Origin: a virus
Taxonomy: Duplodnaviria; Caudoviricetes
Direction: 5' to 3' (one strand)
Length of the DNA: 64,000 bases
Virus record (IMG/VR): IMGVR_UViG_3300001525_000092
Span: 1 to 64,000 of that record
The notes under the pieces were generated by a model, which made no database searches, had not been told where the DNA came from, and saw nothing but the letters and a program-made list of their open reading frames with translations. The translations under genes were made by a program, and so were the position numbers. Shown here piece after piece: positions 4,994 to 63,620 of the stretch; position 1 is the first letter of the stretch; every line of letters begins with the position of its first letter.

Positions 4994-6301
4994 ATGGAAA
5001 TATTAGTGAATGGAAAGTACAACAAGGACTGCAAGATATTTGCAAAGACTATAGAAGATGAAGCATTGAAGACTATCTACTCTATATGTGACTGTCCAGC
5101 ATTCAAAGATCAGAAGATGCGAATCATGCCCGATGTGCACCAAGGTTGTGGAATTGTCATTGGATTCAGCTCCACTATAGATGAAGACAATCCATTGATC
5201 AATCCATCACATGTTGGTGTTGACATTGGTTGCCAAGTGACTTGCTTAGAAATGTCAAAGCCTTGTCCTGAAGAAAGCTATCCATTGCTCGAGCATCGAT
5301 GGAAGAAGTCTATTCCTATGGGATTCTCTATATATGACAAGAAGATTGCAGAAGAGAAGAAGTTCTACAAGATGTGCAACGCTGCTATAGACTGGGCTAT
5401 TGCATCTACTAAGCTTGTCAACAATGTCCACATAGATGAGAAGTACATCTCTAAGATGCTCAAGAGAATTGGGATGGATGAAGGAACTTTCTGGAAGTCA
5501 TTAGGAACAGTAGGTGGAGGCAATCACTTCTTGTCTTATGATACTGATGATGACAGAAATGGGTACATCATGATACACTGTGGATCACGCAACTTCGGGC
5601 TGAAGGTAGCAAAGTACTGGATGAGTGTTGCTGCTAAGCCATATCATGTTGACACTTCTTCTTTGGCTAAAGAGATAGAGAAGATAAAAGATTCTTATCC
5701 TAAGTCAGAGTGGAATGCTAGAATCAAAGAAGCAAAAGAGACAATAGTGTCATTGGTTCCAACTGGTTATCTTTCAGGTAATGATGTAGTAGGTTACTTG
5801 ACTGACATGGTGATAGCACAGACTTATGCTAACTACAATCATGCATTGATATCCGAGAAGATGATAGAGATCTATAGAAAGATTGTCAAAGGTGCAAAGG
5901 TAATCAATACCATCAATACTATGCACAACTACATAGACTTTGATGACATGATTATCAGAAAAGGTGCAGTCAATGCTAGCTATGGTCGTCGTCTTGTCAT
6001 TCCTATCAACATGAGAGATGGTGTCTTGATATGTTGTGGAAGAGGAAATGAAGACTGGAACTGCACTGCTCCACACGGCGCTGGTCGACTAATGTCTCGT
6101 TCTTCTTCTAAGGAGAATCTTTCTATGGAAGAGTTCAAAGAAGAGATGAAAGATGTCTATTCAACATCTGTCAACAAGTCAACTCTTGATGAGTCACCTA
6201 TGGCTTACAAGCCTATGCAGGAAATAATTGATGAAATTGATCCTACTGTTCAGATACTGAAACGAATCAAAGAACGCATCAATATCAAGGCGAGTGAATG
6301 A
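4994..6301 (+). CDS. rtcB: RtcB-family RNA ligase
   Basis: MPDVHQG, VGVDIGC, LGTVGGGNHF, IHCGSRNFG, HNY, RKGA, APHGAGR, DESPMAYK motifs. Confidence 0.95.
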   Translation: MEILVNGKYNKDCKIFAKTIEDEALKTIYSICDCPAFKDQKMRIMPDVHQGCGIVIGFSSTIDEDNPLINPSHVGVDIGCQVTCLEMSKPCPEESYPLLEHRWKKSIPMGFSIYDKKIAEEKKFYKMCNAAIDWAIASTKLVNNVHIDEKYISKMLKRIGMDEGTFWKSLGTVGGGNHFLSYDTDDDRNGYIMIHCGSRNFGLKVAKYWMSVAAKPYHVDTSSLAKEIEKIKDSYPKSEWNARIKEAKETIVSLVPTGYLSGNDVVGYLTDMVIAQTYANYNHALISEKMIEIYRKIVKGAKVINTINTMHNYIDFDDMIIRKGAVNASYGRRLVIPINMRDGVLICCGRGNEDWNCTAPHGAGRLMSRSSSKENLSMEEFKEEMKDVYSTSVNKSTLDESPMAYKPMQEIIDEIDPTVQILKRIKERINIKASE

Positions 6302-6333
6302 GATGCTCGCAGAAAGCCGCTGGGTGGCCTTTA

Positions 6334-24770: not shown

Positions 24771-24927
24771 AATTTATGTCAATATATATATATGAATCTT
24801 GTATTTCTTTTGGTATGTCATCTATTGACTCGCCGAAATATGTTGCTAACTCATCTAGATTATTTTGACAGAGCAACTTATCATGAAAATTACTCTGTCT
24901 TTCAATGTATTCTCTTAAGTTTATCAT
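24754..24927 (-). CDS. Small hypothetical protein (57 aa, absent from ORF track)
   Basis: MINLREYIERQSNFHDK...YDDIK*; ATG overlaps the thyX stop. Confidence 0.55.
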   Translation of the reverse strand: MINLREYIERQSNFHDKLLCQNNLDELATYFGESIDDIPKEIQDSYIYIDINYDDIK

Positions 24928-25751
24928 AATTCTAATCCTATAGTCTTGAACTCATTATGTATCATTGTTGAGAGCTGTTTCATTTGTGGATGAACTTTCC
25001 CAGTCACTTCTCTATATCTCAAGTCAAAGAAATGTCTCCAATCTAAAATAGTTCCTGACACTATCATCTCACACTTAGTAGCTTTAGGAAGAATTTGAGC
25101 ACACTCTTGAGCATTAGCACCTAACTTAGCAAGCTTAAGATAAGCATACTCTGCACGTTCCATGTCTTTCTCCCATTCTCTCATGACATTTTGGTCTTTA
25201 ATATAGATGCCAAAGTTTGGACGAATGAAGTTCACGTTGTTGTCAAACTTGTCTTTAGAATAAGCACAGTAACGTGTGCTCTCCACGCAATAAGAGAGCA
25301 CACGATGTCTAGTGAACTCTCCAAGTACTTGCAAGTTAGTGACTAGTCTTACTGTAAGTCTTTTCTCATGACAACCTTCTATGTATGCACACTGATACTT
25401 CAATGCATCTTCTAGTTCATTCTCTACAATCACTCTATAGTTAGTAGTTATATATAAGAAGTTGCCATCATTAGAAACAGAACTATACTTTGACACTTTA
25501 TCATTGTGCTGAAATTCTGTAGCTAAACTATCTGATACAGGAATCTTAAGATAGATTGTAAGGTGCTCGATAGGAGCATAATGGGTACTGTTCACCATCC
25601 TGTCTACAAACTTCTCCGCAGATCCTTCTTCTATCCTGTCTAATGAATGATAGCAAGTTCTGCCTGCTACTTCTGCTATCTTCTTGCCTTCTGTCAATGT
25701 TGCTTCGCCTTGACTAATGATTACTACTGACTGATTCTCTATGATGTTCAT
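24924..25751 (-). CDS. thyX: FAD-dependent thymidylate synthase
   Basis: AGRTCY, HYAPIEH, FTRHRVLSYCVESTRY (RHRx7S), WRHFFDLR, HPQM. Confidence 0.93.
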   Translation of the reverse strand: MNIIENQSVVIISQGEATLTEGKKIAEVAGRTCYHSLDRIEEGSAEKFVDRMVNSTHYAPIEHLTIYLKIPVSDSLATEFQHNDKVSKYSSVSNDGNFLYITTNYRVIVENELEDALKYQCAYIEGCHEKRLTVRLVTNLQVLGEFTRHRVLSYCVESTRYCAYSKDKFDNNVNFIRPNFGIYIKDQNVMREWEKDMERAEYAYLKLAKLGANAQECAQILPKATKCEMIVSGTILDWRHFFDLRYREVTGKVHPQMKQLSTMIHNEFKTIGLEL

Positions 25752-28578: not shown

Positions 28579-30564
28579 ATGACACTGAAAGAAAGATACT
28601 TGAATGACAAAGGTTCTCTCTCATTAGAAGAGAAGAAGCAGCTTCTAGATGAAGCAAAAGATACATATTACAACACATCAACTGAGCTACTTAGTGATAG
28701 TGAGTATGATGCATTAGAGAAGTCTATAGGATATGAGAACAAGTCATACATTGGTTCTAAGCATAGTGAGAACTATACTATAGAGCATCCTATTATCATG
28801 GGTAGTCTGAGCAAAGTGCAGATTCATCAACAGAAAGATGGTACTATTGACTGGTCTACTTACTTGAATGAACTTCACTCTTATATATACAGACACTATC
28901 CTAACAGTAAGTGCATAGTAACACCAAAGTATGACGGTTGTTCCTTTGAGATAGTCCTAGACATCAAGAACAAGAAGATAGTCTCAATATCCGGCCGAGG
29001 TGATGGCACTTATGGAAAGGACATCAGAAATCAAGTAGGAATTCCATTCACTCAAGATGTGATAGATGACTTCTGCTACAACATCAAGAGCATGTACAAT
29101 GACTGGACAGAGTTTGCTATCTTGAGAGGTGAAGTTCTTGTAAGCAAGACAGTCTTCAAAGAGAAGTATGCTGATCAGTATGCTAATCCTCGCGCTTTCG
29201 TTGCAGGAATGCTAAATAGAGAAGATGAGTACATTCCTGAGTACTCTGACTTGTGTGAGATAATCTATGACTTGCGTATCAAAGATGACAACAGCACTTG
29301 GGAAGACTATGACTGGATTAGACTTGCTAACAACACTAAGTACAACTACTTCTTCCCTAAAGTATATAAGTATGGATATGATCTTTCTACTACTTATGAT
29401 CTTGTCAAGATATATAATGGGTTTGAAGAGTACAGAAGTAGTAGTGAGTATGCACAAGATGGCATTGTCATCAAGCCAGTTGATGCATTGAGAAAGAACA
29501 ATTTGACAGAACGCAGACCTGATGATTGCATTGCATTGAAGTACACTCCTATGACTGAGCCAACAACTGTGACAGACATAGAATGGAAGCTCGGAAAGAC
29601 AGGCGAATGGGTACCAACTATCATTACCGATACTGTCAAGATGGATGGAAAGAACATCAATAGAGCTTCTGCATTCAATTATGGATATCTTATACAGAAG
29701 AGAATAAGCATAGGTACTAAAGTTGTTCTGTCGCTTGCTGGTGACATCATTCCGTTCATATACAAGATAGAAGACAGTAGCAAGTTTGATGAGAGCAATC
29801 TAGGAAAGAACTATCCAAATACAGGAAAGGTAGTAGGAATTCACTTGATGGAAGACAAGCTTCCTCTAGACCATTCACTGCTACATAGTGCACTTGCTCT
29901 GAACATTCCAGGATTTGGTGAGTCAAACATAAAGAAGTTCATAGAATGGAAGAAGAAGGATTGTGAAGGTGATGAGTTCTTTGGAATAGAAGCTAAGCCA
30001 TTACCAGAGCACATCTTGCTTTGTAACCCGACAGAGATAGAGACAGCACTAGGTGGCATGACTGGAAAGAAAGTCTCTAATGCTTACCAGAAGATACTGA
30101 ACAACATGTCGTTGAAAGACATCATCACTTCTTGCAACTTCAAGCTATGTGGTGGCAAGGTAGCAGAACAGATTGTCAACAAGATGATAGGAGAAAGATA
30201 TGACTTCACATCGATGGCATCAGAAGCATACTCTTGGGTAGATGAGAAAGAATCAGAGCAATGGATGTTGCTGATGAAGATATTCAATTTCAATGGTTGG
30301 ACTATAGACAAGTGGAAACTTACTACTGAAGAAAAAGAATCTATATATAAAGAGAAGAAGAAAGTAGAAAGTCAAGTACCTGTGATACTTACTGGTGAGC
30401 CTAACAACTATGCAAGCAAGAATGAGTTCTTGAAGTGTCATCCTGAATATCGATTGACTGGTTCATGGAAAGAGGTAAAAATAGTGTTTACCAACTCATT
30501 AGAATCCAATACAGGAAAGATGAAGAAAGCTCGCGAGAAGAACATTGAAATTAAAGTATATTAA
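28579..30564 (+). CDS. ligA: NAD+-dependent DNA ligase
   Basis: YY...LSDSEYDAL, MGSLSK, PKYDG, RGDG, RGEV, NPR, DGIVIK, ALKY, GDIIP, C-terminal BRCT-like domain. Confidence 0.93.
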   Translation: MTLKERYLNDKGSLSLEEKKQLLDEAKDTYYNTSTELLSDSEYDALEKSIGYENKSYIGSKHSENYTIEHPIIMGSLSKVQIHQQKDGTIDWSTYLNELHSYIYRHYPNSKCIVTPKYDGCSFEIVLDIKNKKIVSISGRGDGTYGKDIRNQVGIPFTQDVIDDFCYNIKSMYNDWTEFAILRGEVLVSKTVFKEKYADQYANPRAFVAGMLNREDEYIPEYSDLCEIIYDLRIKDDNSTWEDYDWIRLANNTKYNYFFPKVYKYGYDLSTTYDLVKIYNGFEEYRSSSEYAQDGIVIKPVDALRKNNLTERRPDDCIALKYTPMTEPTTVTDIEWKLGKTGEWVPTIITDTVKMDGKNINRASAFNYGYLIQKRISIGTKVVLSLAGDIIPFIYKIEDSSKFDESNLGKNYPNTGKVVGIHLMEDKLPLDHSLLHSALALNIPGFGESNIKKFIEWKKKDCEGDEFFGIEAKPLPEHILLCNPTEIETALGGMTGKKVSNAYQKILNNMSLKDIITSCNFKLCGGKVAEQIVNKMIGERYDFTSMASEAYSWVDEKESEQWMLLMKIFNFNGWTIDKWKLTTEEKESIYKEKKKVESQVPVILTGEPNNYASKNEFLKCHPEYRLTGSWKEVKIVFTNSLESNTGKMKKAREKNIEIKVY

Positions 30565-44852: not shown

Positions 44853-46571
44853 TTATAGTATGGTTGTAGTTATTGTTGCTTCAATTGGCTCTGTCTCTCT
44901 AAGAAGGATACCCATAGAGATTAGCTTCTTCACTAAGTGATCTGTCTTCTCTCCTATAGCATCTGTGTCTATGTTCTTCATTCTAAAGAAGAAGTTGAAG
45001 TGGCTATAGTCTGAAAGTTGCACACCATACAAGTAAGAAGTGTCAAACCATCTTCCTGCTCCTGCATAGATGCCACAATGATTCAGTATAGTTGACTCAT
45101 TCTTCACTCCTATGTCACCCGGCTTCAGATCATCTCCACTTATCATTTCCCAATCCGAGTCAGAGAATATAGTGAAGAAGTCTACACACATGTTAGGTGT
45201 CTCCATTCCTAGAGACTTCTTCATGATGTGCTTGACATATCCAGAGCAGTCTAGTCCATACTCTGGCTTGTCTTTTCCGTGTATCTTGTAGAAAAGACCT
45301 GGTTGCATGCACAAGCAATTGTACATCACTTCCTGTCTCTTGCTAGACAGATTCATCCAGTCATGCTCATACAAGCTTCTTACTTCTTCTTTGTCATATC
45401 CTGTGAAGCACTTTCCTTTGTCTTGTCCAAACTCAAACTCATCAGTGTGATAGATGGCATTCTTTTTCATGTAAGTCTCTATCTTGTCTATGACAATGTC
45501 AAACATGTTGTGCTTTATCTGCTGAGATATTCCTTGGACGCCTGGACTTGAGTTGTACTCTATCACAAAGTCTCCATCAGTGCATGCCATCAAGTCTATT
45601 CCTACCCATCGGCATCCTGAGAGCTTAGCTACCTTGAGTGCTATCTCTTTCTGCTTGTCCGTCATCTGGTACTCTTCTGTCTTAGCACCTAGTGACACAT
45701 TAGAACGGAAGTCACCTGATATCTTGTCTCTTTTCATGCAAGCAAGTATCTCGTAGTTGGCACCATCTACAGAGAATGCATGGACACGAATGTCACCAGT
45801 GTTCTCTTTGTACTCTTGTATGATGAACTCTGCTTCTTTGTCTATAGTGAACATAGCTTGAAGTATTCCTTCTATCTCTTCATGGTTGCAGATGAACACT
45901 CCAATGCCAAGACTGCCATTCAGTATCTTCACAACATACTGTCTGTTCTCTTTCACATCATTGATGTTCTCATTAGCGGTGTATATAGAGTCAAGCATCT
46001 TCCAGAAGCTTTCTCTTGTGTCATGGCACTCAGTGTTCAGATCTTCCATCAATTCTCTGGTGATGAGAACATATCCTGGTTGTGGAATGTTCTCTTGAGC
46101 AAGCAAGTTAGAAGCAAGGAACTTGTCTGATGCCATGATTATCTCATCTATAGTATTGAGCATGAAGAATCCTTCATATTCTAGAGCACGCATCAGACCA
46201 ATGTAGTTCTTCTTGTTGTCATCATTTGCTTGTCCTTGAAACACTATAGTGTCATGGATGTTGCTATGCTTGAGAGAGAAGTGCATGTCCATGATGTCAT
46301 CATCTATAGATATGACATGATTCTTGTAAGTGAAGCGCACTGTTGACTTGTTGAGCCAGACTAAGTTGAGCTTGCGCTTGTGGCAGCATATAGTGAGATA
46401 GTCTTGGTAAGACCAGTCTTCTTCTTTGTCTTTGATAGCTTCATCATAAGTCTTCACCTTCTTGTCTCCAACATAGAAGCATATCACATTCTTAAGCTCT
46501 AGCTTAGTGTCATTCTTAAGCAATGTCATTGCCTCATTGATGTTCTTGTACTCTTTCTCTTTTACTTGCAT
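44853..46571 (-). CDS. RimK-like ATP-grasp ligase fused to C-terminal NlpC/P60 domain
   Basis: ASDKF, VVKILNGSLGIGV, IIQEY, GDIRV, DFRSNVSLG, GIDL, VIEYNSSPG; then GLDCSGYV, LKPGDI, HCGIYAG. Confidence 0.85.
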   Translation of the reverse strand: MQVKEKEYKNINEAMTLLKNDTKLELKNVICFYVGDKKVKTYDEAIKDKEEDWSYQDYLTICCHKRKLNLVWLNKSTVRFTYKNHVISIDDDIMDMHFSLKHSNIHDTIVFQGQANDDNKKNYIGLMRALEYEGFFMLNTIDEIIMASDKFLASNLLAQENIPQPGYVLITRELMEDLNTECHDTRESFWKMLDSIYTANENINDVKENRQYVVKILNGSLGIGVFICNHEEIEGILQAMFTIDKEAEFIIQEYKENTGDIRVHAFSVDGANYEILACMKRDKISGDFRSNVSLGAKTEEYQMTDKQKEIALKVAKLSGCRWVGIDLMACTDGDFVIEYNSSPGVQGISQQIKHNMFDIVIDKIETYMKKNAIYHTDEFEFGQDKGKCFTGYDKEEVRSLYEHDWMNLSSKRQEVMYNCLCMQPGLFYKIHGKDKPEYGLDCSGYVKHIMKKSLGMETPNMCVDFFTIFSDSDWEMISGDDLKPGDIGVKNESTILNHCGIYAGAGRWFDTSYLYGVQLSDYSHFNFFFRMKNIDTDAIGEKTDHLVKKLISMGILLRETEPIEATITTTIL

Positions 46572-47596
46572 AACTCATCAATAGCATTTATAAGTTTCTC
46601 AAAGAACTTGCAGTTAGTCTCTTCTATGTCAGGATCATTGATAGGTGAGCTTGGTCCTGGTGCACCATTTAGCTCTACAATGATAGTCTTTCCATTCTGG
46701 AGTGGAAGCATGTCGACACCGCACCACTCTAGTCCTGATGCTCTAGCAACTTCTAATGCAAGCTTCTCTTGCTCACTAGAAAGTTTGTAGTCATCTTCCA
46801 TGTCACATCCAAGACTTAGATTAGTCCTGAAGTCTTTTCCTTTCTTCCTCATTATAGAAGAAAGTATCTTTTGCTTTCCATTCAACGTCAGAACATGAAC
46901 TCTGATGTCACCATCTTTTATCTCTTGAAAGTCTTGTATCAGTATAGGACAGTTCTCTTTGAGCTTGAACAGGCATTGCAATATAGAGACGATGTTCTTT
47001 CCTCTGCAGCAGAACACACCTTTGCCACCATGGCCACCCAATATCTTGCACACATAATTGAAGTCATCATCTAGCTTTCCGTACAGCGTCTTTAGTTTCT
47101 CATCTAGCTTCTTGTGATCTTCTTTGTCGATATCTGCTGATGTTGATAAGACAAACTTAGGCTGAGGAAACTTATTCTGGTCTAAGAAGCATGCTGTGGC
47201 ATACTTGTCAGAAGAGAGTGCTACTGCTAATGGACAGTTCAATATCAGTATTCCTAAGCTTTGGATAGCTTTCAATAGATTAGACACAACTGGATTAGTA
47301 TATCCACTCCTCATCAGTATGACAGTGTCTTTTCTATCAGATATTGTCAGCTTCACTGTACTGCTGTCTTTTTCTCTACTATATATAGTTACACTCTTCT
47401 CTTCAGTAGAGAAGTCAAGCTTAGTAGGATCAGCATACTCTACTTTGATGTGATCTCTAGACAGCATCTTGATGCTGTTCAAGTAGAGTTCTCCTATCAA
47501 TACTAGCCTCTTCACTTTCTTAAGCTCGGTTGTATGTTCTTGATTCTTGCTCTCAACTAATGTAAGCATGTCATCAAGATTAGTGACATATTTCAT
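46562..47596 (-). CDS. RimK-like ATP-grasp ligase
   Basis: SSDKY, VCKILGGHGGKGV, LIQDF, GDIRV, DFRTNLSLG, GVDM, VELNGAPG. Confidence 0.88.
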   Translation of the reverse strand: MKYVTNLDDMLTLVESKNQEHTTELKKVKRLVLIGELYLNSIKMLSRDHIKVEYADPTKLDFSTEEKSVTIYSREKDSSTVKLTISDRKDTVILMRSGYTNPVVSNLLKAIQSLGILILNCPLAVALSSDKYATACFLDQNKFPQPKFVLSTSADIDKEDHKKLDEKLKTLYGKLDDDFNYVCKILGGHGGKGVFCCRGKNIVSILQCLFKLKENCPILIQDFQEIKDGDIRVHVLTLNGKQKILSSIMRKKGKDFRTNLSLGCDMEDDYKLSSEQEKLALEVARASGLEWCGVDMLPLQNGKTIIVELNGAPGPSSPINDPDIEETNCKFFEKLINAIDELCK

Positions 47597-48556: not shown

Positions 48557-48811
48557 ATGTATACAAACATCATCGGATTCATCATTGTCGGCATCTTCAT
48601 TGGATGTTGTCTCATGACATTGATCTCTATCTACTCATACAAGAAGAACTGTCCTGATTATGTAGAGACAGATACCGGAATTGTATGGAGGTTGAAGTGC
48701 AAAGCAACTTCTTGTGTTGACAACAAGCCTTGCTATGTCATGGAAAGCACAAAAGATGCACATGTAGAGACAGTAGACTACTTGACATTCAAGAAGAGGT
48801 TCAAAGAATGA
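48557..48811 (+). CDS. Small membrane-anchored protein
   Basis: N-terminal TM helix. Confidence 0.6.
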   Translation: MYTNIIGFIIVGIFIGCCLMTLISIYSYKKNCPDYVETDTGIVWRLKCKATSCVDNKPCYVMESTKDAHVETVDYLTFKKRFKE

Positions 48812-48871
48812 ACTTCTTCTTTTATTTATCTATGTTTTATTTAACAAACAATTAAAATCAAGAAAGTATTT

Positions 48872-50017
48872 ATGAGTTGGAAACCAGATTTTGACTACAG
48901 TAACAAGAACATGAACTTTTATAAAGTAGGTTGTAACTTTGATCCTAAGTTGATTGATGTTGCTGTAGAATTGAATGAGAAGTATAAGGGAAAGTCACAG
49001 ATAGTAGAGTTCTTCGGTTCAGATAGGTCTACACAAGATGTCTCTGCACGTCCAGGATGGAGATTGCCGGACATTTCTAAAGAAGAGTTTGCAAGTTATG
49101 TGAAGAAGTTGAAAGAAAACAACATTGGATTCAACTTTACTATGAACTCAATCATTCCATATAGCAATAAAGTAGAAATGGTGAAACATAAGAAGGACAT
49201 TCAAGATCTTGTTAAGTGGCTTGAGTCAATTGGTGTGTACCGTCTTACTATTGCTAATCCAGAGCTTCTTATTATGGTACGTGAAGTATCTAACATAGAA
49301 GTAGAAATGTCTTGTATCACTCACATTGATACTGTGACTCAACTTAAGTACTACCATGAGAACTTTGGAGTGAACAAGTTCTGTAACTCTATTCTTAAGA
49401 ATCGTAACAAGAAGTTCTTAATTAATGCTCAGAAGTATTGTGATGATAATGGATTGGTACTTGAGCTTATGGCAAATGAGTTTTGTGGAGTAGCAGGAGT
49501 AGATAGCAAAGGAACTCATTATGCAACACATTGTGTTTTCAGAGATTCTTGTTATATATGCCATGCTTGCAATAGAACAAAAGAAGATTCTATGCTTGAC
49601 AATAACTATCCAATGGGTTATTGCATGTCTGCACGTTCATCAACTCCAGAAGCATGGCTTCGTATGAGATGGATTCGTCCAGAAGATCAGAAGATCTATC
49701 GAGAGAAGACAGGAGTAAATTACTTTAAGTTGTCTGGACGAACTGGCACAACCGAATATTTGAAATATGTGATGGAAGCATATATGTCAGAAGACTTTGA
49801 CAACAACATCATTTCTCTATGGAAACCATTAAGCTCAATTTATGATGGAAAGACAGAGTTGAAGTCAAAGACTGACATAGATATTCCGAATAAGAAGCTT
49901 GATGGATTCATTGATAAGTGGATGGACGGAAATGGCTGGGAATGTGAGAATGAGCTTTGTGGAACTACTTGTCATTATTGCTTAGATTTTGCTAAAGAAC
50001 ATAATTTATATGAGTAA
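48872..50017 (+). CDS. U32 'peptidase'-family Fe-S protein (TrhP/RlhA/UbiUV-like hydroxylase family)
   Basis: FNFTMN, GVYRLTIANPEL, ELMANEFC...HCVFRDSCYICH...YPMGYC, WIRPED, YFKLSGRT (U32 KIEGR equivalent), Cys-rich C-terminus. Confidence 0.8.
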   Translation: MSWKPDFDYSNKNMNFYKVGCNFDPKLIDVAVELNEKYKGKSQIVEFFGSDRSTQDVSARPGWRLPDISKEEFASYVKKLKENNIGFNFTMNSIIPYSNKVEMVKHKKDIQDLVKWLESIGVYRLTIANPELLIMVREVSNIEVEMSCITHIDTVTQLKYYHENFGVNKFCNSILKNRNKKFLINAQKYCDDNGLVLELMANEFCGVAGVDSKGTHYATHCVFRDSCYICHACNRTKEDSMLDNNYPMGYCMSARSSTPEAWLRMRWIRPEDQKIYREKTGVNYFKLSGRTGTTEYLKYVMEAYMSEDFDNNIISLWKPLSSIYDGKTELKSKTDIDIPNKKLDGFIDKWMDGNGWECENELCGTTCHYCLDFAKEHNLYE

Positions 50018-51107
50018 AGAAACAAAAATCATTGCTGGTCCATGCTCTGCTGAGTCATTGGACCAGTGTCTTTCTACAGCTAAGCAACTTTCAGAGCAAG
50101 GCATTAATGTGTTTAGAGCTGGTGTATGGAAGCCAAGAACAAAACCAGGTGGATTTGAAGGTGTTGGTGAGATTGCATTGAATTGGCTAAGGCAAGTTCG
50201 TAGAGAAACAGGAATGAAAGTTGGATGTGAAGTAGCTAACAAAGAGCAATGTGAACTTGCGTTGATGCATAATCTAGACTATATATGGATAGGCGCAAGA
50301 ACTACAACAGATCCATTTGCGGTTCAAGAGATATCTGACACTATCAAAAAGTTTGTGAATGGCCCAGGTAAGACAATGCATAAGTATGTTGGTAACTTGA
50401 CTGTTCTTGTCAAGAATCCGGTATGTCCTGATTATGACTTGTGGGTAGGTGCTATAGAACGTGTCAAGAACTCCGGTGTCAAGAATGTAGGAGCTATTTT
50501 CAGAGGATTCAAGACATATAATCAATCTAAGTATCGTAATGAGCCTATCTGGGACATTCCATTGAAGCTAATCACTGAATATCCTAACATGGAAGTATAT
50601 TGTGATCCTAGTCATATTTCTGGCAATACAGAGTATCTTCAAGACATATCTAATGCCGCTATAGAGTATGGATTTTCTGGATTGATGATAGAAAGTCATT
50701 GTGATCCAGAGAATGGGTGGACAGATGCTAAGCAACAAGTAAAACCAAGCCAGATACATGAGATAGTCGAGAGACTTCCAAATAATGATGTTCTATGCAG
50801 TGCTACTAATGATGATTTGAAGATGCTTAGTAAACTTAGAGCAGAAGTGACAAGCATTGATAGGACATTGTCATTGCAACTGATTGCAAGAATGAGAGAT
50901 TGCATACAGATAGGTAAGATCAAAGAGAGGATGGGTCAAGAGACTTATCAGAAAGACAGATGGAATCACGTACTGAAGAATGTCAACAAACAATTCAAGG
51001 CATCTAAGCTTTATGATGAATATCCTGATGAGTTTGACTATCTTATTAATGTGATATGGAGCGCAATTCATTCTATGTCATGTAAACTTCAAATTAAGAA
51101 CAAATGA
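50010..51107 (+). CDS. Bifunctional DAHP synthase (type I-beta) / chorismate mutase (AroQ)
   Basis: IAGPCSAES, RAGVWKPRT, WIGART, VKNP, CDPSHISG, GLMIESH, WTDAKQQ; C-terminal LSKLRAEVTSIDR...RM...IGKIK...QKDRW. Confidence 0.92.
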   Translation: MSKETKIIAGPCSAESLDQCLSTAKQLSEQGINVFRAGVWKPRTKPGGFEGVGEIALNWLRQVRRETGMKVGCEVANKEQCELALMHNLDYIWIGARTTTDPFAVQEISDTIKKFVNGPGKTMHKYVGNLTVLVKNPVCPDYDLWVGAIERVKNSGVKNVGAIFRGFKTYNQSKYRNEPIWDIPLKLITEYPNMEVYCDPSHISGNTEYLQDISNAAIEYGFSGLMIESHCDPENGWTDAKQQVKPSQIHEIVERLPNNDVLCSATNDDLKMLSKLRAEVTSIDRTLSLQLIARMRDCIQIGKIKERMGQETYQKDRWNHVLKNVNKQFKASKLYDEYPDEFDYLINVIWSAIHSMSCKLQIKNK

Positions 51108-52228
51108 GAGAAGAATTCAAAAACTTAGCACAATACATTCAGGACAAGAATGTATTGTGTGTCCCAATTATCTCATCAATAAATAGAAAGACTGGTGAGT
51201 ATAAGCTGGATGCGGATGGCAATGTCAATAGAATCATCACTACATTTTGGCATGCTGACACATATAAGAAGCTGACTATTGTGTTGCCTTCTAAGCACAC
51301 ATTAGGAAGTGACTCACTTATATATCAGTGGATCAACATGAAGAGTAGTCCAGAACATGAGATAGAAGTCATTTGGTCCGAGAACTTTGGAATCCACGCA
51401 GGAGAGCAACGCAGCAACTACTTTGTCATCAATAAATTGTTTCATGAGTTGGCAAACTACTTCAATGGAAATTTCATAAATGTGTATATGATAGAATCAC
51501 AAGGATTGCTAGACAAAGCATTTCCTTCTATAGTCACTAAAGACGTGATATTCTGGAACTACACTTGCACTACTAACAAGAAGACAAGGTCATTCTTGAA
51601 TGGCTACAAAGAAGTCAATGAGAGATTTTTCAAGGCGTGTGACAAGACTATAGTAGCTTCACCTGAGCAGGTAGAGTACTTCAATGAAGTTGTTCCTGTA
51701 GAAAAGAACAAGATGATGTACATTCCTACATTCATGGATAGAGACATTCCGTTGTTCAAGTATGCCAAAGACACTGTTCTAGATCAGAAGTTGAAGAGGT
51801 ATAGTAAAGTCTTCAAGATTTTCTACTTGCCATATAGAATGACGGATGAAGGATATCTGATGAATGATGTGATACAGTACATCAATGCTGATCCTAATGA
51901 CTTCAAGATGGTATTGTATGGAGATCCTAACAATAGTGGTTACATGGACACAATCAAAGATAAGTTTGACGGCAATGTGATGTTGAAGAAAGTGTCAACA
52001 TCAAGAAATGTCTACTACACTATTCTTGACTGTGACGCTAACATAACAATACCATATTTTGAGGACATTGCATATATCAATCATGCATCAATCCAAGAGT
52101 TCATAGATGATAGATGCAAGTGTCAGATAGTTCTTGCTAATCATGACACGATTGATCCTTATGGATTGTCAAAGCATGACAATGTAAGATATCTTGCTCC
52201 TTTACATGGACCAGAAAGAGAGAAATAA
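51104..52228 (+). CDS. Putative glycosyltransferase-like (GT-B?) protein
   Basis: 374 aa, ATGA-coupled to DAHP synthase/CM; ACDKTIVASPEQVEYF and FYLPYRMTD resemble GT-B elements; fold is an inference. Confidence 0.4.
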   Translation: MREEFKNLAQYIQDKNVLCVPIISSINRKTGEYKLDADGNVNRIITTFWHADTYKKLTIVLPSKHTLGSDSLIYQWINMKSSPEHEIEVIWSENFGIHAGEQRSNYFVINKLFHELANYFNGNFINVYMIESQGLLDKAFPSIVTKDVIFWNYTCTTNKKTRSFLNGYKEVNERFFKACDKTIVASPEQVEYFNEVVPVEKNKMMYIPTFMDRDIPLFKYAKDTVLDQKLKRYSKVFKIFYLPYRMTDEGYLMNDVIQYINADPNDFKMVLYGDPNNSGYMDTIKDKFDGNVMLKKVSTSRNVYYTILDCDANITIPYFEDIAYINHASIQEFIDDRCKCQIVLANHDTIDPYGLSKHDNVRYLAPLHGPEREK

Positions 52229-52388
52229 AAATCTCTTCTTTCCTATATTCTACACACAAATATATATAATAAGAGAATTATGACATTTAATGTAAATGAA
52301 TTGAAAAATGCTACAATGACAACCGTGCCAGTATATGTATGCCAGACATGTACCGACAACACACATAAATATATTTATGACTATGTGA

Positions 52389-52982
52389 ATGAGTAAGATA
52401 AACATTATATGCATGGATGGCCATGATCGTAGTGGCAAAGATACTATCATGGATTCATTGTCATTTGATGACTATCTAGTATACAAGCAACCAGAGACAG
52501 AAGATCAAGATGTAGACTATAAAGATCCTGAGAAGTTCAAGAACTTCATGGTGAAGTACATCAGGAAAGTTCTAGATGACTTGTACACTATGTCTAAGAT
52601 GAATGGAACAGACAGACCTATAGTGATATCTAGACTTCTTCTTTGTGACAATGTCTTTTCTGACATATATGGTAGAGAGCATGTAGTAGAGAAGTATTTT
52701 GGTAAAGAGATAGAGACTAACTTCAATGTCATCAACTACATCATGCTTTTCAGAGACTATGAAGAGTATGTGAAGAGAGTGGAGATGATAGGAAGTACTA
52801 TTGACTTCACTGAGAAAGAGTTTGATGACATAGTGAGCAACTATAATCATTATAAGTCAGACAAAGACATTGTCAAGTTGATAGATGCAACAGATTCTAA
52901 AGAGAAAGAGTATGCTGACTTTGTGAATGCATTTGAATATTTGACACCACATTATAGATTAGAGCATGATAACACAGTTTGA
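52389..52982 (+). CDS. Thymidylate-kinase-like deoxynucleoside monophosphate kinase
   Basis: P-loop ICMDGHDRSGKDT, IVISRLLLCDNVFSDIYGR. Confidence 0.75.
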   Translation: MSKINIICMDGHDRSGKDTIMDSLSFDDYLVYKQPETEDQDVDYKDPEKFKNFMVKYIRKVLDDLYTMSKMNGTDRPIVISRLLLCDNVFSDIYGREHVVEKYFGKEIETNFNVINYIMLFRDYEEYVKRVEMIGSTIDFTEKEFDDIVSNYNHYKSDKDIVKLIDATDSKEKEYADFVNAFEYLTPHYRLEHDNTV

Positions 52983-53580
52983 GAGACAGTTGACAGAAGT
53001 GCAAGGATCACCATACAACCAAGCAGCAGAGATGATGATCCTTCACTACATGGCTATAGGATACAAGTTCAAGATGAACAGAAATCAGATGCTTGATGAC
53101 TACATTGCTAGTCCTAAAGTATTGTTCACAAGTGTAGTACCACAATATCAGTCACCTTATGACGAAGAGGTAATAGAGCTTGCTATGTCACTTGGGTGGA
53201 AGTTTGTATGTTGTGGAAGACTATATACTGAGCTAGAGCAATTTAGCTATGACAGAAAGAGAACTAATTGGGGTTTGTGTTGGAAATGGGACATTGTATG
53301 GCCTCTTGGTATCAAAGACATGATTGTATCTAACAAAGAGAATAATGCCAAGACTGCATTCATCGGATATCGTATGGATGAAGTGATAGACATGAATGTT
53401 GCTGACTATAGCGGCACTTGCATAGATGCTTCTGAGTTCACTAAGCAGTTCTGTGACTATGTGTCAGACAGGTCATTCAACAACTTTGCATTCAGTGAGT
53501 TGTTGCTAGCTATAGTAGAGAAAGATGTGAAAGTCTTCATTGAAGAAAATGTTGAGAAATATTTTGAAAAAATTTCTTAG
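52966..53580 (+). CDS. Hypothetical protein coupled to the kinase
   Basis: 204 aa, overlaps kinase stop. Confidence 0.65.
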   Translation: MITQFERQLTEVQGSPYNQAAEMMILHYMAIGYKFKMNRNQMLDDYIASPKVLFTSVVPQYQSPYDEEVIELAMSLGWKFVCCGRLYTELEQFSYDRKRTNWGLCWKWDIVWPLGIKDMIVSNKENNAKTAFIGYRMDEVIDMNVADYSGTCIDASEFTKQFCDYVSDRSFNNFAFSELLLAIVEKDVKVFIEENVEKYFEKIS

Positions 53581-53816: not shown

Positions 53817-54899
53817 ATGAAAAAGTTTATTTTAAGCATCTTGATGGCTTTTGTAGCCGTCTTTAGTGTGAATGCACAGAATCAGAGTAACTATAGCAGT
53901 AGTTCTAAGCTTACTGACAATGTGAGTGTGACCGTTCAAGGTGGTGTTCTGACATCATTTGACAACTTCTACTCTGGTCATACTGCTATGGCTCCTATTG
54001 CATTGGTAGGAATTGACAAGTATGTCACTCCGGTGTTTGGAATTGGTATCGAAGGTCGTACATTGATTGGTACTGGACATGGTTCATACAACACTTATAC
54101 CGCATTTGACTATGTGAATGTGTCAGGTTACTTGAAAGGTAACTTGGGTAATGCATTCAATTATGTAGGTGCACGACATGCTTTTGAGCCAGTAGTATAC
54201 ACAGGTATTGGATGGGGTCATGGAACCGCTTATATGCATCCTAACTGGATGACTTACCGTGCCGGTATGGAGCTTAATTACAACTTCGGAAATGCAAAGA
54301 ATTGGGCAGTAGTTGTGAATCCATCAGTTGTATGGAATGACATTGACAATGGCAAGCTTATCAAGAAGAATGGTAGCTTTGAGGTCACAGCAGGTGTAGT
54401 ATATCACTTCAATACATCTAATGGCACTAGTGCATTCAAGAAGGCTAAGCTTTATGACCAGAATGAGATTGATGAGCTCAATGGAAAGATCAATGGATTG
54501 CAGAAGGACTTAGACAATGCTAATGCTACTATCGAGTTGCTGAAGAGCAAGCCTGTTCCACAGACAAACACTGTAGAGACAGTGAAGACAGTTTATCCTA
54601 AGGTACAGTTCAAGCAAGGTTCTGCTAAGATCACTGAGACATCTATGGCTAACATCTATGACATTGCAGATGCATTGAAAGATGTAGATGGCACTATCAA
54701 AGTGACCGGCTATGCTTCAACTGAAGGTAGCACTTCATACAACAAGACATTGTCACTGAAGCGTGCAGAAGCAGTGAAGAATGCACTCGTCAAGGCCGGA
54801 GTTGATGCTTCAAAGATTGAAGTAATTGGTCTTGGTGCTACTGACAAGTTCAATCCTGATGATCTAAGCACTAATCGAGTTGTTACTACAGAGAAGTAA
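53817..54899 (+). CDS. OmpA-family outer membrane protein (Bacteroidales type)
   Basis: Signal peptide ending VNA-Q, beta-barrel with YTGIGWGH and TAGVVYHF, coiled linker, OmpA domain VTGYASTEGSTSYNKTLSLKRAEAVK...NRVV. Confidence 0.9.
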   Translation: MKKFILSILMAFVAVFSVNAQNQSNYSSSSKLTDNVSVTVQGGVLTSFDNFYSGHTAMAPIALVGIDKYVTPVFGIGIEGRTLIGTGHGSYNTYTAFDYVNVSGYLKGNLGNAFNYVGARHAFEPVVYTGIGWGHGTAYMHPNWMTYRAGMELNYNFGNAKNWAVVVNPSVVWNDIDNGKLIKKNGSFEVTAGVVYHFNTSNGTSAFKKAKLYDQNEIDELNGKINGLQKDLDNANATIELLKSKPVPQTNTVETVKTVYPKVQFKQGSAKITETSMANIYDIADALKDVDGTIKVTGYASTEGSTSYNKTLSLKRAEAVKNALVKAGVDASKIEVIGLGATDKFNPDDLSTNRVVTTEK

Positions 54900-54927: not shown

Positions 54928-54962
54928 AAATGGACATTGCTTGTGAAAGTGATGTCCATTGT
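54928..54962 (+). terminator. Stem-loop terminator after ompA-like gene
   Basis: aatggacattgctt-gtga-aagtgatgtccatt. Confidence 0.55.
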
Positions 54963-61367: not shown

Positions 61368-62557
61368 GAACAGACATTCAACTTTCTATAGATAGACTAA
61401 ACAATATATTTGAAGATGGAATAGAAAAGTATGTTGATCCTATCACTAACTTGACATATGACTATTATGTTCCTTCTACTAATCTTTACATTGACATGAG
61501 ATATGGGATAGAATGGCAAGGACATTCTTTTGATTCTTATAATCGTATTGATATAGAATTGGCGGAGTGGCTTAAAGAGAAGGGTACGGATAATGCACCA
61601 TATAAATGGGTGACAGAAGGATCTGCTAAAGACAATGTTGCTAAGATGTACAATAGAAGCTACATCATATTCTGGTCTATAGAAGAGTTGAATGCATTCT
61701 TTGACATGTCAATGAAGCTAGAATATAGCAATGATGACATGAGAATAGAGTATGAGAAGATACTTAAGCATGATGGAAAGCTCTCATTGTATAGTGGACA
61801 CAACAAGATAGTGAAGCAATTTCAGCAAGAGAACTTGTACCAACCAGAACAAGCATTGTTTGATGACTATGCTAAGAGATACAAGCTATGTAGGAATCGA
61901 GACAAGTATCTTGGTCTCAAGATATGGGACTTGAATGCTAATGACATGATAAATGGATTCAAGATAGCAGGAATGCATTATGGATTTAGCATGTTCAGTC
62001 CTATGATAGGTAAGTGGTTTGTATGGCATTTCAACTTGCAGGACAGTGTGTGTTATGATCCAACTGGAGGATGGGGTCATCGCTTGCTAGGAATAGCACC
62101 ATTTGTGAAGAAGTACATATACAATGACTTGAGTCCTCATACAGTAGAAAGTTGCAAGAGGATAGCACAATGGGCAAATCTAGACAATGTAGAGTATCAC
62201 AATGAGGATGCAACAACATTCATGCCAGATGCAGACTATGACTTCATGTTCACATGTCCTCCTTATTATGCTGATGACAAGAACACTGAAGAGTATGAGT
62301 GTGATGGATTCACTTCATTGGAACAATTCAATGACTTCTTGCTAGGAATGTATGATAAGTTCTTGAAGAAAGAATCTTGCAAGTACTTTGGATTAGTGAT
62401 ACGAGAGGACATGGTACCAGACATCATGAGAAAGGACATCAAAGAATCATACTGTGTAGCAAGAAACTCTAACTCACACTATGCTAGAACATCTAAGCTT
62501 CAAAGAAAGAAGTTCTTAGAATACTTATACATATTCAAGAAAGATGGAATTAAGTGA
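61364..62557 (+). CDS. Amino (N6-A/N4-C) DNA methyltransferase with N-terminal degenerate nuclease-like domain
   Basis: SAM motif CYDPTGGWGHRLLG, catalytic FTCPPYY; N-terminal YDYYVPSTNLYID...H...W...KDNVAK...YIIFWS resembles the local endonuclease domain. Confidence 0.8.
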   Translation: MRTDIQLSIDRLNNIFEDGIEKYVDPITNLTYDYYVPSTNLYIDMRYGIEWQGHSFDSYNRIDIELAEWLKEKGTDNAPYKWVTEGSAKDNVAKMYNRSYIIFWSIEELNAFFDMSMKLEYSNDDMRIEYEKILKHDGKLSLYSGHNKIVKQFQQENLYQPEQALFDDYAKRYKLCRNRDKYLGLKIWDLNANDMINGFKIAGMHYGFSMFSPMIGKWFVWHFNLQDSVCYDPTGGWGHRLLGIAPFVKKYIYNDLSPHTVESCKRIAQWANLDNVEYHNEDATTFMPDADYDFMFTCPPYYADDKNTEEYECDGFTSLEQFNDFLLGMYDKFLKKESCKYFGLVIREDMVPDIMRKDIKESYCVARNSNSHYARTSKLQRKKFLEYLYIFKKDGIK

Positions 62558-63620
62558 TGAAGTGAACAATATATACCTTAAGTATGTTGATTCAAGAAAT
62601 AGAATAATTCCGAAGAAAGTCACACACATTACAGGAGAAGAAATAGAATGTCTTAGAAAATATTTAGTTAATTTGCCCATATCATATACTCCAGTGACAT
62701 TATTGCAACATATCAAAAATAAAGTATATGAAATAGGCAAATGCAAAAGATGTGGCAAACCTACAAAATGGCTAAAAAATCATTATCAAGAATATTGTTG
62801 CTTGCTATGCATGCAAAAATCAATATACGTGAAAGAAAATAGAATTAAGACAAATCTACACAAATACGGTGTCACCAACAATCTAAGAATAGATGATGTA
62901 GTCAAAAAAGCAACATTCAATTCTCACACAAAAGAAGCAATATACAAACAACAACAAACTAGATTAGAAAAATATGGCTACATAACTCCATTCCAAAATG
63001 AAGAAAGTATGTCATTAGCAATTAAAAGATCTCATACATCTAAAGCAGAAAAGAAAAGAAAAAATACTTTTTATAAGAAATATGGAGAAAATAGAAAAGA
63101 AATAGTAGAAAAATACAAAAATACTATGCTGGCTAAATATGGTGTAGAAAATGCTGGACAATTAAAGAAAACAATAGATTCTCATACAAAAGAATCAATT
63201 CTAAAAGGAATAGAAACTAAAAGAAAAAATCATACATTCAACACTTCTAAGCCAGAAGAAGAACTATACTTATACATAAAGTCTAAGTTTCCTAATGTGA
63301 AGAGACAGTACAAAGACAAAGAACGATATCCATATTACTGCGACTTCTACATTCCTGAGCTAGACTACTTTATAGAACTACAAGGTTACTACACTCATGG
63401 GAAAGAACCTTATAATCCTGCTTCTATCAAGCATCAAGCCTTAGTGCAAAGATACAGAGAAAGGTATGGTTCAGATTGCCAAGCAATCACTATATGGACA
63501 ATCAAAGATGTAGAGAAGAGAAACTGTGCTAAAGAGCATAATCTGAACTTCAGAGAAGTATGGTGCTTAGAAGAAGGAAAGAAATTTGTTGATGAATTAT
63601 TTGAAAAATCAATTAGCTAA
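62544..63620 (+). CDS. Free-standing homing endonuclease-like protein
   Basis: CKRC...YCCLLC, KYGV-type repeats, TSKPEE...YPYYCDFYIPELDYFIELQGYYTHG...WTIKDVEKR. Confidence 0.75.
   Translation: MELSDEVNNIYLKYVDSRNRIIPKKVTHITGEEIECLRKYLVNLPISYTPVTLLQHIKNKVYEIGKCKRCGKPTKWLKNHYQEYCCLLCMQKSIYVKENRIKTNLHKYGVTNNLRIDDVVKKATFNSHTKEAIYKQQQTRLEKYGYITPFQNEESMSLAIKRSHTSKAEKKRKNTFYKKYGENRKEIVEKYKNTMLAKYGVENAGQLKKTIDSHTKESILKGIETKRKNHTFNTSKPEEELYLYIKSKFPNVKRQYKDKERYPYYCDFYIPELDYFIELQGYYTHGKEPYNPASIKHQALVQRYRERYGSDCQAITIWTIKDVEKRNCAKEHNLNFREVWCLEEGKKFVDELFEKSIS

Follow-up and report, generated by a model that had tools for sequence, protein, structure and literature searches.

A U32-family gene block in a giant gut phage suggests a prephenate-dependent, oxygen-independent route to glycosylated 5-hydroxypyrimidines in DNA

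RB69-type phages carry a gene cluster that makes arabinosylated 5-hydroxycytosine (5hoC), in which the thymidylate synthase (ThyA) homologue gp48 hydroxylates dCMP, binds flavin and takes its oxygen from O2, as determined by 18O2 labelling, while gp46:47 is the proposed first glycosyltransferase (GT), gp45 is a thymidylate-kinase-like (TMK-like) 'nucleotide kinase' and the U32 homologue gp50 is labelled only 'sugar or heterocycle reductase'; prephenate, chorismate and Fe-S are nowhere mentioned in that report (PMC13326640; Lee et al., NAR 2026). Prephenate is used for DNA modification in Synechococcus phage S-B43, through a CmoA/CmoX 5-carboxymethylcytosine system (PMC12783734), and the formation of 5-hydroxycytidine in 23S rRNA by the U32 protein RlhA needs conserved cysteines, Fe-S biogenesis and prephenate (PMC5727448). 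Here we analyze a five-gene block in the first 64 kb (hereafter the window) of the 148-kb IMG/VR virus record IMGVR_UViG_3300001525_000092, which derives from a giant gut phage and has a CheckV completeness estimate of 52%. Like RlhA (YdcP), the proteins TrhP (YegQ) and UbiU/V of E. coli are U32-family Fe-S hydroxylases that depend on prephenate and not on O2, and a system related to that of RB69 is reportedly described for E. coli phage HY126 by He et al. (Nat Chem Biol 2026).

The block spans positions 48872-53580 and consists of five co-directional, tightly coupled genes encoding a U32-family protein, a DAHP synthase-chorismate mutase (CM) fusion, a GT-B glycosyltransferase, a TMK-like protein and a HAD-like protein. 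We propose, with a probability of roughly 60%, that it specifies an O2-independent pathway, dependent on prephenate, by which DNA acquires a glycosylated 5-hydroxypyrimidine (5-hydroxycytosine being the likeliest). On this proposal, the DAHP synthase domain would increase the flow into the shikimate pathway of the host, and its fused CM partner would convert chorismate to prephenate. The U32 Fe-S enzyme would then hydroxylate a pyrimidine at C5, on a deoxynucleotide or in DNA, with prephenate as oxygen-atom donor, and would replace the O2- and flavin-dependent ThyA-like 5-hydroxy-dCMP (5hodCMP) synthase of RB69-type phages. The TMK-like kinase would act on a nucleotide intermediate, and the GT-B enzyme would add a sugar to the new hydroxyl, shielding the DNA from nucleases. 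The gene identities, folds, homologies, linkages and patterns of presence and absence reported below are established, and from them we infer all the steps of this mechanism.

The U32 protein of the window matches the Pfam Peptidase_U32 model (PF01136) with 30 bits (gathering cut-off 22.4) and the 'peptidase' family PHROG 5757 at 8.8e-113; the Pfam model is likewise matched by 80 of 90 aligned relatives, at best with 3e-18. Searches with tblastn retrieved 222 phage records, with 46-50% identity to genes of T4-like phages, and the 40 matches listed of these 222 all belong to T4-like or related Straboviridae of Enterobacterales and Shewanella. Sequence and profile searches of the PDB returned chance matches only. 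An AlphaFold (AF2) model built on the 90-sequence alignment (predicted local distance difference test, pLDDT, 96.3; predicted template modelling score, pTM, 0.94) has the U32 peptidase Mk0906 (5d88) as its top Foldseek match in the PDB (E = 3.4e-8), and by this model the protein is a U32 TIM barrel. Three cysteines (C205, C221 and C251) are invariant in all 90 relatives, down to 23% identity, position 227 is occupied by Cys in 68, His in 21 and Asp in one, and 88-89 of the 90 retain a C-terminal CX4CX3CX2C motif, a pattern that fits two metal or Fe-S sites. With RlhA, TrhP, UbiU and UbiV of E. coli the phage protein has in common the Peptidase_U32 domain and fold, conserved Cys sets that may act as ligands, and a genomic link to a source of prephenate. 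In contrast to these enzymes, it lacks DUF3656, carries the additional C-terminal CX4CX3CX2C site, is encoded by a phage and has DNA or a deoxynucleotide as its proposed substrate. The alignment gave no established equivalence between the cysteines of the phage protein and C169, C176, C580 and C611 of RlhA.

The second gene encodes a fusion of a DAHP_synth_1 domain (2e-32) with a C-terminal CM_2 domain (1e-9), corresponding to a type I-beta DAHP synthase at about 50022-50765 and an AroQ CM at about 50835-51092. The DAHP synthase motifs GPCSAES, KPRT, GAR and DPSH are all present and the CM residues equivalent to R11, R28, K39, S84 and Q88 of the E. coli enzyme are invariant. At the CM 'RE' position the fusion has an unusual R-W, which matches the R-Y of Bacteroidales enzymes (an R-Y/W variant), and its nearest cellular relatives are Bacteroides and Paludibacteraceae DAHP synthase-CM proteins, with 45-46% identity. 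Bifunctional enzymes of this Bacteroidales type, in which a type I-beta DAHP synthase is followed by a C-terminal CM, are known from Porphyromonas gingivalis and Prevotella nigrescens. The phage fusion has their domain order and catalytic motifs, but it is coupled to a U32 gene rather than to aromatic amino-acid genes and scores below the NCBIfam equivalog cut-offs (130.9 versus 279 bits for PRK12595 and 163.7 versus 335 for PRK08673); by these scores it is a divergent member of its family. The best 'phage' match to the fusion, MT837090, was set aside, as this aro operon looks bacterial and includes genes for prephenate dehydrogenase and DXP synthase.

To place this pairing in context, we scanned 42 U32 loci (that of the window, 39 from IMG/VR and two from metagenomes, numbered L) with custom hidden Markov models, and found a CM beside U32 in 26 of them. 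Six sister phages, whose U32 proteins are 67-84% identical to that of the window, carry a stand-alone CM directly after U32 and no DAHP synthase; this CM corresponds to residues 269-371 of the window fusion (Pfam CM_2, 1e-14), and the DAHP synthase half was either lost from the sister phages or never present in them. More distant phages (L018 and the L030 group; U32 about 59%) have the fusion within an operon of AfhE-like, HAD, arabinose-5-phosphate (A5P)-isomerase-like, GT1 and TMK-like genes. In L024 and L025 (U32 68%; three samples, contigs up to 107 kb, with one of 203 kb in the catalogue) the order is GT1, DAHP synthase-CM, U32, and close behind U32 follow genes for DHQ synthase (aroB), shikimate kinase (aroK), a type II dehydroquinase-EPSP synthase fusion (aroQ-aroA), chorismate synthase (aroC) and shikimate dehydrogenase (aroE), which together make up a predicted complete shikimate pathway to prephenate of seven enzymes. 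At L024:9068-20025, and also in L025, L026 and L019, a single cluster contains the shikimate genes together with U32, GT1, TMK-like, A5P-isomerase-like and AfhE-like genes. What the L024 and L025 contigs share with the source phage is limited to the module genes and an HNH endonuclease, and their other genes match phage families. In T4-like phages, an ORF (open reading frame) of 81-85 aa adjoining U32 encodes a mini-CM (Pfam CM_2, 40 bits against a threshold of 27) that is present at 13 of 15 T4-like U32 loci and in 50 GenBank phage records, and a type I-alpha AroFGH DAHP synthase is found elsewhere in the genome in two of five U32-bearing T4-likes and in none of four U32-less phages. Since the T4-likes use a mini AroQ CM and a type I-alpha AroFGH enzyme and the phage studied here a Bacteroidales-type I-beta fusion, CM and DAHP synthase were recruited at least two times. 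At a further locus (L042:9384 onward), a DAHPS/KDO8PS-like gene lies directly 3' of U32, and no CM was detected there.

These arrangements bear on the notion that the fusion is an ordinary auxiliary metabolic gene supplying aromatic amino acids and unrelated to U32. Phage DAHP synthases are indeed annotated as auxiliary metabolic genes (PHROG 5045), and two T4-likes carry theirs far from the modification cluster. However, no prephenate dehydratase, dehydrogenase or aminotransferase lies alongside even where the shikimate pathway is complete (L024 and L025 have neither the dehydratase nor the dehydrogenase within 10 kb), the sister phages keep the CM alone and always directly 3' of U32, and in L018 the fusion is placed between two sugar-activation genes of the operon. 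We therefore consider a role in amino-acid supply very unlikely, and the original prediction that the aromatic-pathway gene travels with U32 and not with amino-acid genes stands. A different use of prephenate is suggested by S-B43, which, much as proposed for the block, borrows chemistry of the tRNA cmo5U pathway together with prephenate for cytosine C5 and thereby shows that phages use prephenate for DNA modification (PMC12783734). By analogy, prephenate could be made here for a CmoA-type carboxy-S-adenosylmethionine (Cx-SAM) synthase leading to 5-carboxymethylcytosine-type DNA. S-B43 relies on CmoA and the methyltransferase-like CmoX, whereas the block has no such genes, and the CmoA model TIGR00740 had no match in the source record and four relatives, two of them complete. 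Without CmoA, Cx-SAM is not the use of prephenate here, and we regard this explanation as extremely improbable.

The remaining genes of the block connect it to the published 5hoC clusters. The third protein, predicted from the outset to be GT-like, aligns with the T4-like GT1 family in hhalign (97.7%, E = 1.4e-12, 274 columns; eight unrelated control pairs all stayed below 1.1%), and its AF2 model (pLDDT 92) adopts a GT-B fold with LmbT (8ixp), sucrose-phosphate synthase (6kih), MshA (3c4q) and BshA (3mbo) as Foldseek neighbours. The same PDB neighbours were reported for the RB69, DLP3 and RL38J1 glycosyltransferases (PMC13326640). By this homology the protein is assigned to the proposed base-proximal 5hoC GT family, which includes RB69 gp46:47, gp79 and Thanatos TH1_063. 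The fourth protein aligns with the T4-like TMK-like (gp45) family (hhalign 96.2%, E = 2.4e-9), with which it has a G-x-D-x-x-GK-x-T P-loop and a DR motif in common, and its description as thymidylate-kinase-like thus held. Searches with tblastn gave no match for either the GT-like or the kinase-like protein, and their homology emerged only from profile-profile comparison. The fifth gene, previously given as of no assigned function, is now identified as a degenerate HAD-like paralogue: it aligns with the phage KdsC-like HAD family (hhalign 97.5%, E = 6.6e-12), but motif I is deleted, FIGDSxSD is reduced to FIGY, and the catalytic DxDG and GDxxxD (motif IV) are lost. Because hhalign found no profile similarity between the J_HAD family and the T4-like gp51 phosphatases, the two are not equated.

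Three of the five block genes (U32, GT and kinase) are therefore homologous to genes of the published 5hoC clusters of RB69-type phages, which have sugar-modified cytosine and in which, as originally predicted, the U32 and kinase genes do occur. The base-proximal GT-B enzyme and TMK-like kinase have homologues in the arabinosyl-5hoC clusters of RB69, Acinetobacter phage DLP3 and HY126, RB69-type clusters contain a U32 homologue as the block does, and relatives of the source phage carry AfhE-like, HAD and A5P-isomerase-like genes, again as in these clusters. Unlike them, the block has a DAHP synthase-CM fusion, and the source phage lacks both the ThyA-like O2/flavin 5hodCMP synthase and an arabinose-activation arm. 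Sister phages and phages of the L018/L030 type possess the arabinose-activation genes; in the sisters, AfhE-like, HAD, second GT and SIS genes that are missing from the source phage stand between GT1 and the kinase gene. The window GT is only about 39% identical to the GT of the sisters, compared with 83% for U32, and the sugar donor of the source phage may differ from theirs.

The association of these genes extends well beyond close relatives. GT1 accompanies U32 in 35 of the 42 loci and a TMK-like gene does so in 36, most of the loci without one or the other being short or truncated contigs, and at some loci only the trio TMK-GT1-U32 is present. The expected linkage was thus found in related and unrelated phages alike. 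In T4-like phages the U32 gene is surrounded by genes for a 'thymidylate kinase', a 'thymidylate synthase' homologue, sugar activation and DNA polymerase. A competing explanation is that U32 and CM hydroxylate RNA of the phage or the host (the wobble U of tRNA or a C of rRNA), as TrhP and RlhA do, and that they keep company with DNA-modification genes through shared early expression only. In its favour, RNA is the substrate of every characterised U32 enzyme that modifies nucleic acid, and a second 5hoC synthase seems redundant in T4-likes, which already possess a functional one. This explanation is hard to reconcile with the adjacency of U32 to GT1 and TMK-like genes, which recurs in unrelated phages, in varied gene orders and in trio-only loci, or with the non-T4 clusters, which hold no other source of the hydroxyl that the GT1 homologues need. 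The phage U32 protein also lacks the extra domains of RlhA and matches no NCBIfam model, and we judge an RNA substrate to be quite unlikely.

The distribution of the O2-dependent hydroxylase is consistent with the proposed route. ThyA of the 5hodCMP-synthase type is present at all 15 T4-like U32 loci and at none of the 27 others. No ThyA homologue (PF00303) was found in the 148-kb source record, in the complete relatives G001 (294,491 bp) and G003 (282,933 bp), both of which have terminal repeats, or in two further relatives of 86-90% completeness, and a 128-kb phage of another lineage, 98% complete, likewise has none. The sole ThyA in a complete non-T4 genome is that of a 230-kb phage (L037 about 5593-6333; G006:66217-66957), which lies directly before GT1 and is accompanied in this phage by U32, TMK-like and AfhE-like genes. 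This ThyA has the canonical thymidylate-synthase residues D169, N177 and L143 and not the D169N/N177D signature of the 5hodCMP synthases. The source phage has ThyX, so thymine is probably kept, and the homology of GT1 points to cytosine as the modified base. ThyX and an NAD-dependent DNA ligase are encoded at window positions 24924-25751 (- strand) and 28579-30564 (+ strand), and the class III ribonucleotide reductase NrdD at G000 69301-71355.

The relation to oxygen follows the same lines. Genes for class III (anaerobic) ribonucleotide reductase are present in the source record and in four further non-T4 phages that carry U32, and a search of these five genomes found no R2 subunit of class I; the source phage lineage looks anaerobic from its gene content, in agreement with the suggestion that it is a phage of an anaerobe. 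The NrdD match extends across two separate open frames in relative G001 but not in the source record. Conversely, 376 phage records contain the ThyA-type 5hoC synthase, among them those of 57 Acinetobacter and 22 Rhizobium phages, two host genera that are outside the ten most frequent among the U32 matches. Whole-record searches, with RB69 as positive control, found no U32 in Acinetobacter phage Lazarus, Tenacibaculum phage PTm1 or Rhizobium phage IG49. Genomes of Acinetobacter, Rhizobium and Tenacibaculum phages thus have the ThyA-type enzyme without U32, and this is the pattern for phages of strict aerobes.

This pattern also bears on the possibility that U32 acts on the sugar side or at another step of the pathway, with CM serving something else. 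For RB69 gp50, the one function suggested in print is 'sugar or heterocycle reductase' (PMC13326640), and the TIM-barrel fold is common to many sugar-phosphate enzymes. Such a role would nevertheless leave unexplained why U32 is absent from phages of aerobic hosts that make the same arabinosyl-5hoC, and why the source phage keeps U32 when it has no arabinose-activation genes. The repeated, independent linkage to CM, DAHP synthase or the whole shikimate pathway points instead to the use of prephenate, the hallmark of U32 hydroxylases, and we consider a sugar-side function improbable.

Several observations weigh against a prephenate-dependent hydroxylation of DNA and temper our confidence in it. 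With regard to the enzyme, the known U32 hydroxylases have RNA or quinones as substrates, none is known to use DNA or deoxynucleotides, and the Cys spacing of the phage protein differs from the CX6C signature of RlhA. None of the NCBIfam models, including those for TrhP, RlhA, UbiU and UbiV, was matched by the U32 protein at E <= 0.01, for which reason we treat the phage proteins as a separate, phage-centred U32 subfamily. With regard to prephenate supply, 16 of the 42 U32 loci have no CM nearby, and RB69 itself has no DAHP synthase and no detectable CM, the mini-CM position between U32 and the ThyA-like gene being occupied by ORF049c (L010:2757-2996). The host-oxygen pattern is not strict, since E. 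coli phage JS98 has a 5hoC cluster without U32. Genes for NDP-arabinose synthesis (A5P isomerase, AfhE-like kinase/pyrophosphorylase and phosphatase) are absent from the 148-kb record, which is 52% complete. Finally, no MazG-type dCTPase was found in the complete relatives, in contrast to the arabinosyl-5hoC clusters, which weakens the case for a full replacement of dCTP in the manner of T4.

The lack of a MazG-type dCTPase leaves total replacement via the nucleotide pool unsupported and makes direct action on DNA possible. In its boldest form, the proposal would make the phage U32 protein the first prephenate-dependent hydroxylase acting on DNA itself, after replication, to generate 5-hydroxypyrimidines genome-wide, an extension that we think rather unlikely. 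If it were true, hydroxylation would cost one prephenate per base, which would account for the presence of the whole shikimate pathway in some phages. A U32 relative with 36% identity lies in a bacterial-looking island (L028:4752-14636), where its neighbours are genes for a 1081-aa protein, a nucleoside 2-deoxyribosyltransferase-like protein and a 1361-aa ResIII/Eco57I protein, with Mrr_cat close by, and this island may be a cellular DNA-hydroxylation restriction-modification system. Were U32 to act at the DNA level, cellular relatives of this kind would form the modifying part of restriction-modification systems based on hydroxylation.

The coordinates and boundaries of the block are given in Table 1. 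The five ORFs, their overlaps and their coupling proved to be as originally described, except that the start of the fusion gene was refined: listed as an ORF from a TTG codon (49989-51107), it likely begins at ATG 50010, which gives an 8-nt overlap with the U32 stop (ATGAGTAA). As a terminator-like hairpin lies just upstream and the next such site on the + strand is at 53843, with none between, the block fits a single transcription unit. Six related giant phages show the same neighbours, and unrelated large phages have them in a different order, so the arrangement is not due to chance; at the DNA level, the block had no match among 50,697 phage records. An ORF of 29-48 aa with the motif KYIY occupies, in L003-L008, the same position as the 38-aa ORF of the window, whose part in the modification system is uncertain.

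Table 1. Genes and boundary elements of the U32 block (window coordinates).
Feature	Coordinates	Strand	Remarks
Terminator-like hairpin	48791..48821	+	13-pair stem, then T-rich tail; ends upstream gene, 5' boundary of block
U32-family Cys-rich protein, 381 aa	48872..50017	+	Pfam PF01136, PHROG 5757; RB69 ORF050c (gp50) orthologue
DAHP synthase-chorismate mutase fusion	50010..51107	+	Pfam DAHP_synth_1 and CM_2
GT-B glycosyltransferase, 374 aa	51104..52228	+	ATGA overlap with DAHP synthase-CM; no Pfam match; hhalign, AF2
Small ORF, 38 aa, CxxC	52280..52396	+	Overlaps kinase start via the same ATGAGTAA junction as U32/DAHP synthase
Thymidylate-kinase-like P-loop protein, 197 aa	52389..52982	+	GxDRSGKDT; RB69 ORF045c (gp45) homologue
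Degenerate HAD-like (KdsC-type) paralogue, 204 aa	52966..53580	+	17-nt overlap with kinase gene

Beyond the block, a 14-pair hairpin is located at 54929-54960, 3' of an OmpA-like gene. Two neighbouring RimK-type ATP-grasp ligase genes (44853-47596, - strand), the larger with a C-terminal murein-endopeptidase-like region, are 77-89% conserved and flank the module in every sister phage. At least four DUF7487 paralogues are dispersed across the genome (35934-37082 on the - strand, 62544-63620, 1-822 and G000 about 92043-93044), and a further copy sits within the modification cluster of L003.

Many phages protect their DNA with sugars carried on 5hoC, as the 2026 work showed. The only hydroxyl source known for 5hoC needs O2, yet the anoxic gut is home to many such phages and to their hosts, and our full-text literature search found no paper linking phage U32 genes, prephenate and DNA hydroxylation. 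If the proposed route is correct, it would constitute an anaerobic path to sugar-bearing 5-hydroxycytosine DNA and would provide a function for RB69 gp50 and for more than 200 annotated 'peptidase' genes. By our own arithmetic, a genome of 290 kb with 36% G+C contains about 10^5 cytosines, and with 50-100 phages per burst the demand for prephenate would reach millions of molecules, which makes a boost to the shikimate pathway plausible. DNA modified in this manner may resist enzymes and mislead base callers, which is of relevance to phage therapy and to the sequencing of gut phages. The use of prephenate as an oxygen donor would be extended from RNA and quinones to DNA, and the shikimate genes of phages, up to a complete seven-enzyme pathway, would represent the supply of a co-substrate and not amino-acid metabolism.

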